A DNA stretch of 64,000 nt. Origin: a virus. Both the position numbers and the translations under genes were made by a program. The stretch lies in the IMG/VR virus record IMGVR_UViG_3300045199_000074. One strand, 5' to 3'. Positions 32,620 through 37,110 of this stretch are shown piece after piece; within the stretch, counting starts at the first letter, position 1, and the number at the start of each line of letters is the position of its first letter. The notes beneath the pieces were generated by a model. That model did no database searches. It was not told where the DNA came from and saw nothing but the letters and a program-made list of their open reading frames with translations.

Positions 32620-33492
32620 TTACATTTTTATTTCCGGACTGTTGGCGTCGATCTCAACATCGCTGGATGCAGTATTATTTATGAGATGTGGTTTCGTTAG
32701 AATTGCTGCATTAAAAATGGCTAATCCTCCGACTGATCGATCATAAACGCCATCGATTCCTCTCTTTCGGGCCTGCAGATCGAAATCGTCTCTACCGATG
32801 ATAGACACTAGCCCGCTTTCTATCCATTTTTGATTGTCCTTATGATTTCTCAAGTCGAGTATCAAGGCCCCTTCTTTGATTGTGGTGACGATAACGGCTC
32901 CACCATTTTCGTCATCTGAAAATTCCGCATAGTTTGAGATTGCCAGTTCCACATCGTCAGCCACATAAAATGCGCGTCCAAAATAGCCTGTTCCAATAGA
33001 TGGTTTGATACCGTAATTCAGGATGTCTTCCGCATTTTCATTCGATGTCCCGTGATAAACTTCCCTACACGACCATCCAATTGCTCCTGAAGGAACTCCG
33101 TCATTCGGGCTGAGGGAGGCCAGCAAGATTGCTTGTTTGACGACATCAACATCGTCCCAAGTGAGATTTCCGCCGATGGAAGGTCCGCTGTCACTTGTAA
33201 GTTTTGGGAACTTATCCAATACATGTGGTAATAGCTGCATTGTGTGTGGATCAACGTAAGTGCCATGCGGCCCGTCTATTTTTACCTCGACGGTTTCGTA
33301 ATCCTCCAATGTATCCAGTTTTCGTTTTGGGCTACATTGATATCCGTACTTGTCGGCCTGGATCGATAATGACCATCCGTGATCCCACTTAATGGATGGG
33401 AATAAACGGCCGTCTTCTTCGGTTCTTTTAGTCATAAGCTCAAACTCGTAGTTTTCATGCTTCAAAATATGGAATAGTAATGAAACAATCAA
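32620..33492 (-). CDS. Two-domain hypothetical protein with a C-terminal PARP/ART-like (H-Y) domain
   Basis: VYHGTS...GYFGRAFYVADD...A..Y motif. Confidence 0.55.
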   Translation of the reverse strand: MIVSLLFHILKHENYEFELMTKRTEEDGRLFPSIKWDHGWSLSIQADKYGYQCSPKRKLDTLEDYETVEVKIDGPHGTYVDPHTMQLLPHVLDKFPKLTSDSGPSIGGNLTWDDVDVVKQAILLASLSPNDGVPSGAIGWSCREVYHGTSNENAEDILNYGIKPSIGTGYFGRAFYVADDVELAISNYAEFSDDENGGAVIVTTIKEGALILDLRNHKDNQKWIESGLVSIIGRDDFDLQARKRGIDGVYDRSVGGLAIFNAAILTKPHLINNTASSDVEIDANSPEIKM

Positions 33493-33525: not shown

Positions 33526-33861
33526 ATGCGACCACAGAAAGAGAGTTTTATAAAAATGACGACTGGAAGATCTAAACTTGCTGCCGAAATTAAAGATTTC
33601 ATTGAAAAGCACGCAAACATTTCACCAAATTACGACCCTGAACACGATGATCCAGAAGATAGATTTACTGGACCTGATGCGTCTTTGATGAACCAGGCTG
33701 CCTTGGCATTAGAAGAAGACCTTGAATTCACTTATGTGCATTCTGACTGGGGGTCCGGTTGCTACTCTCCATATGGTGATAAGCAGGCGCGTGCTTGGCA
33801 CGATGACCTTAAACAGCGCGCCAATGACCTTCGGCTATCTCCTAAGCCTTCACTGCGCTAA
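33526..33861 (+). CDS. Hypothetical protein
   Basis: 111-aa ORF. Confidence 0.65.
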   Translation: MRPQKESFIKMTTGRSKLAAEIKDFIEKHANISPNYDPEHDDPEDRFTGPDASLMNQAALALEEDLEFTYVHSDWGSGCYSPYGDKQARAWHDDLKQRANDLRLSPKPSLR

Positions 33862-34785
33862 CTTATTTGCGGTATCCAGCACATAGGACGCCGCAGTATT
33901 AAAATTGGAGAACGTTTTGAAGGCTGTGTAATCCTTAGGAGGGACACCGAGCTTAGGAGACGAGTCCCCTCCATTTTGAGGGCCGTAGAGCCACAACCAG
34001 AGATTGGCATCGGTAATCGAACCTTGAGGATTGGTTCGTCCGCCACCATTACCACCAGCGCCCATCGAACAATTCTGTCCGTCAGGTATGCGTGCATCAC
34101 GTTGTATTCGCTCTATATCGATTGAGCTATTCTGCTTTATGATTGGATAGCATCCATATTCTCTTCTCAGTCTGTCTGATGTTTCTTCTTTCCAAAGGTC
34201 CATTAGAATGCGCTCTCCGGTGCCAGCGGCCCAATATGCGGATGCCTTTCCTGTCATTGAGGCTATTTGTCTGGAAGACGAGCGCACGCGACCTGGCAGG
34301 AATTTGTAATCACCGCCCATGAGTGAAAGTCCAAGAGTAGCAAATGCTACAGCTCTATTCTCTTCCTGATCTGATAATGCAGTGTCAAGACAATGAGCAG
34401 CATGATATAGAAGAAGCCAGCTTGCAGTTTCGGCGCTCGACGGCAAGTCATAAATAGTCGGCAATGGGGAGCCATAAGAATCTGCAATGAAATTTGGATC
34501 TATATTTGAGATGGGAGGCAGCAGCGCGCATACGCGTCGCGTTCCTTTTCCGTCGAAATCATATTCGATAATATGCGACATACCCATTAATTCAGTGTTA
34601 GACGTCATAAAGCGAACATGTTCACTGCACCAATTTTGTTTTGTTTTTTCACATAAAATTGCGGCGGTTCTAGCCCAGAATTCTGCTGGATCGTCACGAC
34701 GTTCGAGAATGGCAATCTGAACACCTGATACACTTTCCAATGCTGTAATAAAAGCGAAGGCGGCTGTTGGTAAATCTATTGCCAT
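33850..34785 (-). CDS. Hypothetical protein with a degenerate zincin-like motif (YHAAHC)
   Basis: GGAG RBS; 311 aa. Confidence 0.7.
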   Translation of the reverse strand: MAIDLPTAAFAFITALESVSGVQIAILERRDDPAEFWARTAAILCEKTKQNWCSEHVRFMTSNTELMGMSHIIEYDFDGKGTRRVCALLPPISNIDPNFIADSYGSPLPTIYDLPSSAETASWLLLYHAAHCLDTALSDQEENRAVAFATLGLSLMGGDYKFLPGRVRSSSRQIASMTGKASAYWAAGTGERILMDLWKEETSDRLRREYGCYPIIKQNSSIDIERIQRDARIPDGQNCSMGAGGNGGGRTNPQGSITDANLWLWLYGPQNGGDSSPKLGVPPKDYTAFKTFSNFNTAASYVLDTANKLAQ

Positions 34786-34923
34786 CGAAAAACTCCAATA
34801 TTTTGTCTAATGATAGTGGCGTTATATGCTCGAAACCAACACTTTTATTGCCGAATGAGGGAAAGGCTTTTTTGTTACGTGATTTTATTTTTAAAAATAA
34901 TAATAAAAAAGTGAAAAATCGTA

Positions 34924-34952
34924 TTGACAGTTTCTTCGACCTAATGCATTTA
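34924..34952 (+). promoter_or_regulatory. Sigma70-like promoter of the Leu/Pro/His/Tyr operon
   Basis: TTGACA-N17-CATTTA. Confidence 0.6.
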
Positions 34953-34996
34953 TGGATAACACGACGAATTCACGTCGCCAATTTGAGGATAGTGAA

Positions 34997-35164
34997 ATGA
35001 CAACATCGGCACATACAGTACAGGGAAAGGTTGCGGCAGTTTCTGCTCGCGTCGCCCTGTCTCGTGCCTTGTCGGCACTACCTCATCTCCCACATTTGTT
35101 ACCACTCCCGTATTTGGGATGTGGTCAGCGGGCTGTATTGGCGACTGAAGGATACGCAAATTAA
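34997..35164 (+). CDS. Leu/Pro/His/Tyr leader peptide (55 aa; control run LPHLPHLLPLPYL at 35078-35116)
   Basis: GAGGA RBS 7 nt upstream of the ATG at 34997; 13 consecutive Leu/Pro/His/Tyr codons. Confidence 0.85.
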   Translation: MTTSAHTVQGKVAAVSARVALSRALSALPHLPHLLPLPYLGCGQRAVLATEGYAN

Positions 35165-35183
35165 GTAATCCTTCAATCCAACC

Positions 35184-35230
35184 AAGAAGAAACCCTCGCT
35201 GGCCACAAGCTACCGAGGGTTTCTTCTTTT
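35184..35230 (+). terminator. Attenuator terminator upstream of tRNA cluster 2
   Basis: Perfect 15-bp stem aagaagaaaccctcg / cgagggtttcttctt followed by tt. Confidence 0.9.
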
Positions 35231-35370
35231 GTGCGTCTGTATTTCCTCGTTAGAGGGTTCTGTTTATAACAGAATGATCTTTGAAATTGTGAGCAAGAAC
35301 AGTGCAAGCTGGCTTTGGATGTTGTGGCCGTCACCGCGATATTCTTTGGTGAGCTAGTTTGCGAAGAATT

Positions 35371-35454
35371 GGAGGGTTGCCCGAGAGGCCGAACGGGACG
35401 GACTGTAAATCCGTTGAGAAATCCGCGTTGGTTCGAATCCAACACCCTTCACCA
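35371..35454 (+). tRNA. tRNA-Tyr(GTA)
   Basis: acgga-ctGTAaa-tccgt, CCA. Confidence 0.95.
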
Positions 35455-35461
35455 ATTAAAT

Positions 35462-35544
35462 GTGGCAGTGGCGGAATAGGTAGACGCGGTGGATTCAAAA
35501 TCCATTGGGAAACCGTGAGAGTTCGAGTCTCTCCTGCCGCACCA
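35462..35544 (+). tRNA. tRNA-Leu(CAA)
   Basis: gtgga-ttCAAaa-tccat, CCA. Confidence 0.95.
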
Positions 35545-35622
35545 AAATGAATGTATCCGTCTGGGTTTAGAGTATTTAAATATTCAACCCAGACGGAGAA
35601 GAGAAAATGTAATCCGATCTTT

Positions 35623-35699
35623 CGGAGTGTAGCGCAGTCTGGTAGCGCACCTGCCTTGGGAGCAGGGGGTCGCAGGTTCGAATCCTGCCGTTCCGACCA
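35623..35699 (+). tRNA. tRNA-Pro(TGG)
   Basis: cctgc-ctTGGga-gcagg, C1 start, CCA. Confidence 0.95.
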
Positions 35700-35729
35700 T
35701 CGGATTACATTTTCTCTTCGGAGAAATAT

Positions 35730-35812
35730 GCGGTTATGGCGAAATTGGTAGACGCACCAGATTTAGGTTCTGGCGGGAAACCGTGGGGGTTCGAGTCCCT
35801 CTAACCGTACCA
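35730..35812 (+). tRNA. tRNA-Leu(TAG)
   Basis: ccaga-ttTAGgt-tctgg, CCA. Confidence 0.95.
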
Positions 35813-35828
35813 TCTTTTAATACTAATT

Positions 35829-36049
35829 GGGGATGCTCGCCTGGATTCGGTGTGGGCAGTTGCAAAAAACGTAGAACGCGACCGGGGTAAAACCCGGTCT
35901 TCGAAATATCTCAAGCACACGAGTTGTGGATGCACCGAAATAGCCAGAGAGGGCCGAGTAGGGAAGCGCGTTTCTCAAGCATTGAGGTAGCCTGTGGTAA
36001 TGCTCAGGTCCGAAGACAATCGCCGGTTCGAACCCGGTCATCTCCACCA
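35829..36049 (+). ncRNA. Short one-piece tmRNA-like RNA (221 nt)
   Basis: GGGGATG/CATCTCC acceptor with G3-U70, A discriminator and CCA; ctGGATTCG near the 5' end; T arm ccgg-ttcgaac-ccgg; long irregular helix 2. Confidence 0.7.
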
Positions 36050-36054
36050 TTTTC

Positions 36055-36146
36055 GGGGGACGCCAATAAGGATGGGCGGTTCTGTCACTCGGTTGTAACC
36101 CGAGTCCCTATGCGGCAAGCAGTTCAAATCTAGCCGTCCCCCACCA
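36055..36146 (+). ncRNA. Non-canonical tRNA-like RNA A (8-bp acceptor, GTA loop)
   Basis: gggggacg/cgtccccc + ACCA; actcgg-ttGTAac-ccgagt; T-loop ttcaaat. Confidence 0.65.
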
Positions 36147-36154
36147 TTTCGCAC

Positions 36155-36244
36155 GGGGAGTGCGTTAAGAAGGGTATGACAACCCTGGCAGGCCGTACAC
36201 CTGTCCCCTAGTGGCTACGGTAAAAATCCGTCCACTCCCCACCA
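36155..36244 (+). ncRNA. Non-canonical tRNA-like RNA B (8-bp acceptor, GTA loop, degenerate T-loop)
   Basis: ggggagtg/cactcccc + ACCA; gcagg-ccGTAca-cctgt; acgg-taaaaat-ccgt. Confidence 0.65.
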
Positions 36245-36310
36245 AATTTAAACTAACGGGCCGAGACCTGCTGCCTTAAGTGGCGCTGCTCGGCCCGTGA
36301 ACGAAGAATT

Positions 36311-36387
36311 CGGAGTATAGCGCAGCCTGGTAGCGCGATGGTTTTGGGAACCATAGGTCGCAGGTTCGAAGCCTGCTACTCCGACCA
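36311..36387 (+). tRNA. tRNA-Pro(TGG), second copy
   Basis: atggt-ttTGGga-accat, CCA. Confidence 0.93.
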
Positions 36388-36394
36388 ACTAAAT

Positions 36395-36498
36395 GGCAGG
36401 GCCCTGACGTATCCTAGGTAACATTCGTCGGAGTCGGCGTACTAATCAAAGATTACGGATTGATCATCCGCTGAGATCAAGTGCCTGTCCTGCCACCA
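36395..36498 (+). ncRNA. Unknown structured RNA with an 8-bp terminal stem and 3' ACCA
   Basis: ggcagggc/gtcctgcc + ACCA; internal hairpins; no T-loop or D-loop consensus. Confidence 0.5.
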
Positions 36499-36541
36499 GT
36501 TTCGGGCTATTCCTTAGAAAGATTAGCTAGTCATTAAACGT

Positions 36542-36616
36542 GCCGTAGTAGCTCAATGGTTAGAGCGCTGGATTGTGGCTCCAGAGACGGTGGTTCGACT
36601 CCACCCTTCGGTTCCA
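36542..36616 (+). tRNA. tRNA-His(GTG)
   Basis: ctgga-ttGTGgc-tccag, CCA; no encoded G-1; U at the discriminator. Confidence 0.9.
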
Positions 36617-36657
36617 ATACATATGAGTATCCGCTATAGATAAATCAGCGGAAATGT

Positions 36658-36741
36658 GCGGCTGTGGTGGAATGGCAGACACGCAGCGTTGAGGTCGCTG
36701 TGGGGTAACCCGTGGAAGTTCGAATCTTCTCAGCCGCACCA
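36658..36741 (+). tRNA. tRNA-Leu(GAG)
   Basis: cagcg-ttGAGgt-cgctg, CCA. Confidence 0.95.
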
Positions 36742-36784
36742 AGAAACAACAAAACACTATATATCATGTTCCTATTATTAGTTT

Positions 36785-36868
36785 GTGGGCTTGGCGAAAT
36801 TGGTAGACGCGCCGGACTTAAAATGCGGTTCTTAATGAGTACGAGTTCGATCCTCGTAGCCCACACCA
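36785..36868 (+). tRNA. tRNA-Leu(TAA)
   Basis: Loop ctTAAaa, class II, CCA; one anticodon-stem mismatch. Confidence 0.9.
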
Positions 36869-36885
36869 CTATTAACCCTTCAAAT

Positions 36886-36980
36886 GCGGCCGTGGCGGAA
36901 TTTAGTATACGCGCTGGGTTCAGGTCCCAGTGGAGAGCTTGCAACTCTCTGTGCAGGTGCAAGTCCTGCCGTCCGCACCA
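36886..36980 (+). tRNA. tRNA-Leu(CAG), atypical T-loop (tgcaagt)
   Basis: ctggg-ttCAGgt-cccag, long variable arm, CCA. Confidence 0.88.
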
Positions 36981-37020: not shown

Positions 37021-37110
37021 TAAAGGCCGCCTTGGTTTGTCCCCCTATGCCTTGGTATGGGCATTTCGTTGCGTTTGATTTGTCTCATCCTTAAAACCGA
37101 GAGAATCTAG
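37021..37110. repeat. Diverged repeat, copy 1 (copy 2 at 56880-56958)
   Basis: Shared gccgcct..tttgtccc..gccttg.tat.ggcatt.cgttgcgtttgattt.tct and gagaatcta. Confidence 0.8.

Follow-up and report, generated by a model that had tools for sequence, protein, structure and literature searches.

Two adjacent tRNA-like sequences, here called A and B, lie in a 64,000-nucleotide (nt) stretch of DNA from IMG/VR virus record IMGVR_UViG_3300045199_000074 (the window; coordinates are positions in it unless another locus is named, and are collected in Table 1). Both carry GTA at the anticodon position in an unusual tRNA-like body. Are they selected genes, and, if so, do they serve translation? Comparison with homologs suggests, with a probability that we put at about 0.55, that both are real genes under selection and belong to a small family derived from tRNA-Tyr with an 8/4 frame, A being likely a translational spare tRNA-Tyr and B likely a non-decoding look-alike.

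Cellular tRNAs were long held to share a 7/5 acceptor branch, with few exceptions: tRNA-Sec, allo-tRNA and some tRNAs for Ser, His and Cys. Both 8/4 and 9/3 tRNAs (allo-tRNA, Ser, His, Cys, Sec) were described by Mukai et al. (2017; NAR 45:2776; PMC5389517), some of them in tRNA clusters of alphaproteobacterial phages. That paper names (8/4) tRNA-Ser/allo-tRNA, (8/4) tRNA-His, selC* tRNA-Cys and a minor (8/4) tRNA-Sec, and reports that 8/4 tRNAs were processed, charged and used in Escherichia coli translation (PMC5389517). The 8/4 tRNA as such is thus known already; an 8/4 tRNA-Tyr is mentioned neither in the text of that paper nor in that of a 2020 review (PMC7609411).

The 8/4 fold of A and B

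A and B share one layout: an 8-base-pair (bp) acceptor stem in which G8 is paired with C, a connector of 8 nt (7–8 nt among the A and B copies), a D-position hairpin, an anticodon arm, a variable region and a 4-bp T stem. The initial annotation had listed an 8-bp acceptor followed by ACCA, an unpaired linker, abutting D-like and GTA hairpins and a T arm of about 4 bp, and all of these are present in the sequence. Its reading of the triplet as a Tyr anticodon and of the T loop as canonical in A (TTCAAAT) and degenerate in B (TAAAAAT) was also borne out.

The layout was assessed in an alignment of eight sequences (four A copies, two B copies and two genes from Bosea plasmids). Standard pairs filled 97.2% of the pair cells, as compared with 78% in shuffles, and 16 of the 23 pairs change on both sides. 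None of 500 shuffles reached the observed pairing and covariation, and registers slid by 1–3 columns were 36–55% paired. The acceptor helix was 100% paired, with both-sided changes in five of its eight pairs; the corresponding values were 97.9% and five of six for the 6-bp anticodon stem, 94.4% and four of five for the 5-bp D-position stem with its 6-nt loop, and 93.5% and two of four for the T stem. Comparison of these eight sequences supports all four helices. Within the window, A and B are 48% identical, and 12 of the 23 pairs differ on both sides yet remain paired. The minimum free energy (MFE) fold of B is exactly the proposed one (z −2.2).

Folding of three A copies with RNAalifold offered another solution, in which a 7-bp acceptor is combined with a longer, imperfect 3′ hairpin (GGC.AG.AGU / ACU.CU.GCC). 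This hairpin cannot form in the Bosea genes and would destroy the consensus-type T loop, while the T-stem covariation in B (A-U to C-G) and in Bosea fits a 4-bp stem with a 7-nt loop. A pseudoknot between the connector and the variable region was considered too: UAAG in the former and CCCUA in the latter are both conserved and could pair with one A.C mismatch. These columns never vary in A and B and so provide no covariation for the pairing, and the UAAG motif is absent from the Bosea genes. The 3′ hairpin was rejected and the pseudoknot is not supported; we regard a true fold other than the 8/4 cloverleaf as highly improbable.

As the initial annotation had anticipated, standard finders miss both genes. 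ARAGORN made no call over A or B at its default or 90% thresholds, and 36055-36244 gave no match even at E ≤ 10 to the Rfam models for tRNA (RF00005; threshold at least 29 bits) and tRNA-Sec (RF01852; at least 47 bits), the latter describing an 8/5 branch, a UCA anticodon and a long variable arm. With ARAGORN at 80%, B was called as tRNA-Tyr with a mis-registered acceptor stem and A was never called correctly. A covariance model built from homologs had been proposed as a check; such a model (R1), built from three A copies only, scored A itself at 115 bits and recovered B (46.4 bits, E 1.4e-8 in 191 kb) and the Bosea genes. That a model of A alone detects B at this score indicates that the two are paralogs.

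The best canonical matches of R1 were tRNA-Tyr genes (29–38 bits), and all those checked were ordinary 7/5 tRNAs. All members of the family have G1-C72, A73 and GUA. The similar linkers that had been noticed in A and B are indeed there and can be described more precisely as a tRNA-Tyr variable arm: chromosomal tRNA-Tyr has CGC-UAU-GCG or similar, and the A homolog of a metagenome contig (L006) and the B homolog of genome G362 have CCC-UAU-GGG, a clean 3-bp arm; in the window copies the arm is weaker, with a C.C mismatch or just 2 bp. The R1 matches and the parallel between CCC-UAU-GGG and CGC-UAU-GCG argue for a tRNA-Tyr origin, and by their sequences A and B derive from alphaproteobacterial class II tRNA-Tyr.

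Like canonical class II tRNA-Tyr(GUA), the family has G1-C72, A73, a 3-bp variable arm with a UAU loop and an encoded CCA, and A has a T loop of the UUCRANU type. Unlike it, the branch is 8/4 instead of 7/5, G8 is paired so that there is no free U8, the connector has 8 nt in place of 2 nt, nucleotide 26 is missing, the anticodon stem has 6 bp, and a 5-bp D-position stem with a 6-nt loop replaces the 3–4-bp stem and 10-nt D loop.

The 8/4 tRNAs of PMC5389517 resemble A and B in several respects. They have a 12-bp acceptor branch split 8+4, long anticodon and D stems and extra unpaired connector nucleotides; they lie in tRNA gene clusters of alphaproteobacterial mobile elements; and finders miss or mis-call them. 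The bulge in the T stem of A resembles that of some (8/4) tRNA-Sec and selC* species. The same paper describes polycistrons of irregular 8/4 tRNAs in which an additional loop, the 'E-loop', separates the acceptor stem from the D stem, and the connectors of A and B (7–8 nt) and of the Bosea genes (3–4 nt) would fit the verbal description of that loop. The differences lie in identity: A and B have Tyr features (A73, GUA, a short variable arm) and not those of Ser, His, Cys or Sec tRNAs, and B in addition lacks the decoding and elbow motifs. The initial description of the pair as allo-tRNA-type therefore holds for the 8/4 architecture and the kinship with known 8/4 tRNAs but not in the strict sense. 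Allo-tRNA proper has a long variable arm, G73 or U73 and a D tetraloop, and Ser identity, whereas A and B have A73, a variable region of 11–13 nt with a 2–3-bp stem, and a 6-nt D-position loop. The known exceptions to the 7/5 branch, being orthogonal to parts of the machinery, have served genetic-code engineering. If confirmed, a class II tRNA-Tyr that is naturally 8/4 and has an enlarged connector would bring a new identity to that list and provide a new chassis.

Homologs and their distribution

Related arrays were fetched through a conserved 311-amino-acid (aa) protein encoded in the window. They came from Rhizobium leguminosarum pRlX5 (L002), Mesorhizobium sp. SP-1A (L003; marker protein 89% identical), Pararhizobium sp. 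BT-229 (L004) and the metagenome contigs L006 and L007. The A homolog of Mesorhizobium is identical to A at 86 of 92 positions; an anticodon-stem pair has changed from U-A to C-G, and the loop is CUGUAAA. This loop, which the L006 copy shares, is that of canonical tRNA-Tyr. A JGI contig (L083) carries a copy identical to that of Mesorhizobium. The L006 homolog is more distant (70 of 91 positions identical) and shows three double and five single changes in its stems, every one of which leaves a pair. Across three distinct A copies all 23 pairs are retained, three of them with double changes. The L006 array reads Pro, Leu, Leu, A, His behind a leader peptide with two Tyr codons, and neither ARAGORN nor Rfam found another Tyr gene in it.

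A B homolog with an additional hairpin was found in genome G362 (L020:1501-1611, minus strand). It sits in an array unlike that of the window, in the order Ile, Val, Val, Glu, Trp, Leu, B, Leu, Leu, Gly, His, Asp, Arg. The CCGUACA and UAAAAAU loops are the same as in the window B, and the stems have changed in a way that is compensatory by eye, at acceptor pairs 3 and 5, at the first T-stem pair (A-U to C-G) and at three D-position pairs; in the model alignment, four double changes separate the two copies. The G362 region is also present in IMG/VR as a 129-kb viral contig (L039), and no phage hallmark was found among 10 open reading frames (ORFs) of the locus (PHROGs, 10 kb). A partial GOLLD RNA (RF02032, 136.8 bits, E 1.5e-36, clipped by the end of the locus) lies at L020:1-357 on the minus strand and adjoins this array.

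One R1 match each was obtained on the Bosea plasmids pBSY19_1 (48 bits) and pANAM02 (44 bits); the two genes lie at L026:1501-1588 (plus strand) and L027:1501-1591 (minus strand). Both are 8/4 tRNA-Tyr genes in which the anticodon, D and T loops are canonical and the connector is shorter (3–4 nt), and no other tRNA-Tyr match was found on either plasmid. ARAGORN displaced their acceptor stem by four bases and left out the real CCA end, and the Rfam tRNA model missed them. The pBSY19_1 gene surfaced as a sub-threshold tRNA-Sec match (33.5 bits), which is the route by which the tRNAs of PMC5389517 were found. The tRNA inventories of such plasmids are wrong, since A and B escape standard annotation and the Bosea genes are mis-folded by it.

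The family is rare. Besides the window, A was found in one and B in one of 401 genomes of the taxonomic family, and members were present in 2 of 72,556 plasmid records and in three metagenome contigs; these counts describe samples and are not proof of absence elsewhere. The two genomes, G001 and G362, were the only ones of the 401 matched by BLAST of A+B, and the same query found no copy of A or B among PLSDB plasmids and GenBank phages. R1 returned only canonical tRNA-Tyr (35–38 bits) from about 150 further genomes of the order. A scan of genome contigs with the marker protein gave only two loci, and the metagenome contigs with the closest marker proteins stop about 900 nt from the marker gene, short of the position of A. 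Pattern searches for A gave two true copies among nine matches in metagenomes and none in IMG/VR; for B, a specific pattern had no match in JGI metagenomes, and two looser ones returned from IMG/VR only chance matches and the known G362 copy. No new array was reached with the tmRNA-like RNA that precedes A (described below) as a marker.

Other unusual tRNA genes were seen in the related arrays. Further GUA-loop, CCA-ending tRNA-like RNAs, both missed by ARAGORN, lie at L002:3774-3863 (plus strand) and L004:4836-4926 (minus strand). Their acceptors are 7 bp and their D stems 5 bp long, the T loop of one is non-canonical, and each array also has a canonical tRNA-Tyr; several kinds of odd tRNA-Tyr relative seem to turn up repeatedly in such arrays. 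In the Pararhizobium array there are a tRNA-His whose anticodon is AUG (A34) and a degenerate tRNA-Leu-like piece flanked by an inverted repeat (L004:3184-3261 and L004:4330-4410, minus strand). In the Ser/Gln array of L006, an 87-nt Ser-type tRNA with a UUA anticodon (L006:7049-7135, plus strand; ARAGORN 'tRNA-Stop (tta)'; Rfam tRNA 56.9 bits) may be a natural ochre suppressor.

Possible roles of A and B

Tyrosyl-tRNA synthetase (TyrRS) recognizes A73, G1-C72, the G34-U35 anticodon and the class II variable arm. This identity set is present in A and, by sequence, in B. The initial annotation had offered one reading for both RNAs, as Tyr-anticodon decoys, cleavage-resistant variants or non-translational aminoacyl carriers; the two differ too much for this, because A keeps all of the decoding and TyrRS-identity features and only B has non-decoding ones. 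In A, G1-C72, A73, G34-U35-A36 and the tRNA-Tyr variable arm are accompanied by decoding and elbow motifs: an anticodon loop UUGUAAC or CUGUAAA (U33, A37), a D-position loop GCGGUU or AGGGUU, and a T loop UUCAAAU, UUCAACU or UUCGACU. A is probably a working but non-canonical tRNA-Tyr. A translational role is made likely by these motifs and by the fact that no Tyr tRNA other than the 8/4 type was found in the array of L006 or on either Bosea plasmid; the Tyr codons in the L006 leader favour it further.

B keeps the acceptor end (G1-C72, A73), GUA, the variable arm and the 12-bp acceptor/T stack. Both B copies nevertheless lack the decoding motifs, with C33 and C37 in CCGUACA, a D loop (AUGACA or GCUAGA) without GG and the T loop UAAAAAU. 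Decoding by B is unlikely because both halves of the elbow contact and the U-turn nucleotide are lost, and decay of B is unlikely because its loops are fixed in the G362 copy and its stems covary. B is probably a tRNA-Tyr mimic that is kept by selection and does not decode. If this is correct, it would be a clean natural case of a repurposed tRNA that has shed its decoding and elbow motifs and kept the TyrRS identity set.

On this basis the following course of events can be proposed. A and B would be transcribed within a leader-controlled accessory operon of Tyr, Leu, Pro and His tRNAs, and RNase P and 3′ trimming would presumably release RNAs of about 90 nt that end in the encoded CCA. TyrRS would charge A, which would then serve the ribosome as a spare tRNA-Tyr whose body is altered. 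B, predicted to be unable to form the tRNA elbow or a normal anticodon U-turn, would not decode and would be kept as a tRNA-Tyr look-alike. Our best guess is that it acts as a binder or sink for a factor that recognizes tRNA-Tyr (TyrRS, a nuclease or a modification enzyme, for instance); service as a carrier of Tyr outside translation is a less likely alternative.

Several observations, besides the RNAalifold solution, speak against this assignment. The eight-sequence alignment was fitted to the model, which biases it towards the structure; covariation cannot test the eighth acceptor pair, which is G-C throughout, and the T stem of A is invariant. The proposed fold of A lies about 9–11 kcal/mol above its MFE fold, which differs from it and has a z of only −1.1, so that the case for A rests on comparison with homologs. 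A canonical tRNA-Tyr is already present in the window operon, which makes A redundant here. No TyrRS, tRNA nuclease, aminoacyl-tRNA transferase or other partner for B was recognized among the 40 window ORFs (Pfam and NCBIfam). The A copy of JGI contig L088 has one G.G mismatch in its anticodon stem. B itself has two known members, and it is absent from the closest array relatives, L003 and L088, where A directly precedes a conserved hairpin; B is therefore dispensable in those arrays.

The mismatch in L088 and the missing B would also fit decaying tRNA-Tyr duplicates carried along in the operon, and accessory arrays do hold such genes: 3 of the 26 genes of the Anabaena operon were not detected (PMC8421152). 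Yet all 23 pairs are intact in A and likewise in B, the substitutions in homologs are compensatory or wobble-compatible, with none disruptive between the window A and L006, and the loops of B are identical in an unrelated array while its stems have changed. The initial annotation had named non-conserved pseudogenes as one outcome that would undo its proposal; the homologs with compensatory changes contradict that outcome, and we consider it very unlikely.

A different objection is that neither RNA serves translation and that the whole family consists of decoys, competitive inhibitors or non-ribosomal aminoacyl carriers. The canonical tRNA-Tyr in the same operon would allow this, and in its 8-nt connector, its paired G8 and its small D loop the family is far from the tRNAs known to function. 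Moreover, PMC5389517 reports an 8/4 'E-loop' tRNA that was not charged by the E. coli enzymes tried, and several irregular tRNAs that were charged yet unused in translation. A mere decoy, however, would not need the U33, A37, GG and UUCRANU that A retains, nor does this view suit the 8/4 form being the sole Tyr gene found behind the Tyr-codon leader of L006 and on the two Bosea plasmids, and neither an enzyme using aminoacyl-tRNA nor a tRNA nuclease was recognized among the 40 window ORFs. A wholly non-translational family appears unlikely.

Conversely, B might still decode UAY, its C33, C37 and T-loop changes being an escape from a nuclease or modification enzyme that acts on the anticodon loop. 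Nearly all elongator tRNAs have U33 and a purine at 37, and B has C at both positions; it also lacks the D-loop GG and the T-loop U-U-C, and both losses are common to the two B copies. In favour of decoding, GUA, A73, G1-C72 and the variable arm are retained, as is the 12-bp acceptor/T stack required for EF-Tu, and resistance to the anticodon nucleases of the host is predicted for phage tRNAs with loop mutations (cited in PMC11555353). We judge a decoding B to be quite unlikely and retain the reading of B as a non-decoding look-alike.

Comparable extra tRNA genes are known elsewhere. The 'trn' L-array of Anabaena is a regulated, stress-induced spare-tRNA operon (PMC8421152), and, like it and the arrays of Acidithiobacillus integrative conjugative elements, the window combines extra tRNA genes including Tyr with a regulated operon on a mobile element. 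A phage tRNA-Tyr offsets the tRNA-Tyr-cleaving PtuAB of retron-Eco7; this rescue is a supply effect, since E. coli tRNA-Tyr under a phage promoter rescues too (PMC11555353). Septu cleaves tRNA-Tyr in its variable loop (PMC13096335). The Anabaena, Acidithiobacillus and phage spare tRNAs are canonical cloverleaves, unlike A and B, and the search of 40 window ORFs revealed no system that cleaves tRNA-Tyr. By analogy, back-up supply when host tRNAs are limiting or attacked is a plausible role shared with accessory operons and phage tRNA-Tyr, and a conflict over tRNA-Tyr in regulated spare-tRNA operons of mobile elements is plausible as well.

In Staphylococcus, non-proteinogenic tRNA-Gly isoacceptors serve cell-wall synthesis, with the Fem transferases as partner enzymes. 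Like these and Bacillus cereus tRNA-Other (cited in PMC5389517), B keeps a tRNA body and a chargeable end and lacks the D-loop GG and T-loop U-U-C, the loss of which keeps those RNAs off the ribosome. It differs from the staphylococcal tRNAs in its amino acid and its altered anticodon loop, and no partner enzyme was found in the window. A bolder proposal can be put forward tentatively and is, in our view, possible but doubtful: that B-type RNAs, with an 8/4 body, a fixed anticodon-like loop CCGUACA and a UAAAAAU T loop, are dedicated non-decoding tRNA-Tyr mimics which move among megaplasmid and phage-like arrays and act on a tRNA-Tyr-recognizing factor or as a non-ribosomal Tyr donor, and that A-type RNAs would be the first natural translational 8/4 tRNA-Tyr. 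In that role B would divert or inhibit an enzyme that cleaves or modifies tRNA-Tyr, or supply tyrosine off the ribosome.

The operon and its surroundings

Table 1. Position of A, B, their parts and neighbouring features in the window.
Feature	Position	Strand	Sequence or basis
Element A, 92-nt 8/4-type tRNA-Tyr(GUA) gene	36055-36146	+	sequence; homologs L003/L083/L088/L006; model R1 115 bits
A, acceptor stem	36055-36062 / 36135-36142	+	GGGGGACG/CGTCCCCC, then ACCA
A, A73; CCA	36143; 36144-36146	+	
A, connector	36063-36070	+	CCAATAAG, 8 nt
A, D-position hairpin	36071-36086	+	GATGG-GCGGTT-CTGTC, directly abuts anticodon arm
A, anticodon arm	36087-36105	+	ACTCGG-TTGTAAC-CCGAGT; loop 36093-36099; GTA 36095-36097
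A, variable region	36106-36118	+	CCCTATGCGGCAA
A, T arm	36119-36134	+	GCAG-TTCAAAT-CT(A)GC; loop 36123-36129; bulged A 36132
Element B, 90-nt 8/4-type tRNA-Tyr-derived RNA gene with probably non-decoding loops	36155-36244	+	fold z −2.2; R1 46.4 bits; L020 homolog
B, acceptor stem	36155-36162 / 36233-36240	+	GGGGAGTG/CACTCCCC, then ACCA
B, A73; CCA	36241; 36242-36244	+	
B, connector	36163-36170	+	CGTTAAGA, 8 nt
B, D-position hairpin	36171-36186	+	AGGGT-ATGACA-ACCCT; loop without GG
B, anticodon-like arm	36187-36205	+	GGCAGG-CCGTACA-CCTGTC; loop 36193-36199; GTA 36195-36197
B, variable region	36206-36216	+	CCCTAGTGGCT
B, T arm	36217-36231	+	ACGG-TAAAAAT-CCGT; loop 36221-36227; then one unpaired C, 36232
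Upstream control region	34872-35257	+	promoter-like site, leader ORF, terminator-like hairpin
Promoter-like site	34872-34901	+	
Leader ORF	34952-35164	+	carries run LPHLPHLLPLPYL
Terminator-like hairpin	35244-35257	+	
Canonical 7/5 tRNA-Tyr(GUA), first gene of the operon	35371-35454	+	ARAGORN, Rfam
tmRNA-like CCA-ending RNA, 221 nt	35829-36049	+	Rfam tmRNA
Strong conserved hairpin, located between B and tRNA-Pro and not followed by a T run	36256-36298	+	z −5.2; in L003, L088, L006, L007
Operon remainder: tRNA-Pro, 104-nt CCA-ending RNA, tRNA-His, three tRNA-Leu	36311-36980	+	ARAGORN, Rfam
104-nt CCA-ending RNA	36395-36498	+	
tRNA-His	36542-36616	+	
Terminator-like site	37044-37061		
311-aa conserved protein	33850-34785	−	80 homologs; same position in L002, L003, L004, L006, L007
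PARP catalytic domain protein	32620-33492	−	Pfam PF00644, 27.1 bits, barely over cut-off

The window is part of a rhizobial mobile element. Its GC content is low (about 44%), and ARAGORN and Rfam found 19 tRNA genes with encoded CCA in three groups. Pfam and NCBIfam searches of 40 ORFs recognized a trpS copy, a ClpB-like ATPase, a strawberry-notch helicase, UmuC, an integrase and a GatB-tail mini-protein. The plus-strand group at 35371-36980 has the order Tyr, Leu, Pro, Leu, gap, Pro, gap, His, Leu, Leu, Leu, and the first gap holds a transfer-messenger RNA (tmRNA)-like RNA, A and B, in that order. The spacers are short, 5 nt between the tmRNA-like RNA and A and 8 nt between A and B; no ORF of at least 70 aa runs across A or B; the promoter-like site, the leader and a terminator-like hairpin all precede the first tRNA, and a terminator-like site follows the last. 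From this arrangement A and B appear to belong to one transcription unit.

The tRNA-Tyr that opens the array and its chromosomal counterpart in Mesorhizobium sp. SP-1A are about 81% identical. The tmRNA-like RNA matched the Rfam tmRNA model at 21.2 bits (E 4e-6), under the gathering score, and its core is 92–98% conserved in L003, L004, L007 and L008. The hairpin that follows B may be a processing or protein-binding site inside the operon; in all the loci that have it, it lies immediately 5′ of a tRNA-Pro beginning 'gaattcggag'.

The marker protein lies between two tRNA arrays in Rhizobiaceae elements and megaplasmids and is also encoded on Bosea and Methylorubrum AM1 megaplasmids. Cys and His are invariant at many of its positions, among them H128, H131 and C132. 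Its confident AF2 model (pLDDT 85.5) had no clear match in the PDB (Foldseek E > 0.1; VIA Z ≤ 4.6, in zincin-like rows).

Three further features of the neighbourhood were recorded. The 104-nt RNA of the operon is 89–95% identical in R. leguminosarum pRlX5 (L001:6010-6115), L003 and L088, and the pRlX5 copy sits in a different array (Ala/Val/Ile/Met/Thr). The inner hairpin of this RNA shows a compensatory change from cggat/atccg to ggggt/acccc. The RNA contains CGUAC, as does the loop of B. The operon tRNA-His has a U.U mismatch in its acceptor stem and U73. Finally, the PARP-domain protein adjoins the Ser/Gln tRNA array of the window, and a homolog is found at the same position in L016.

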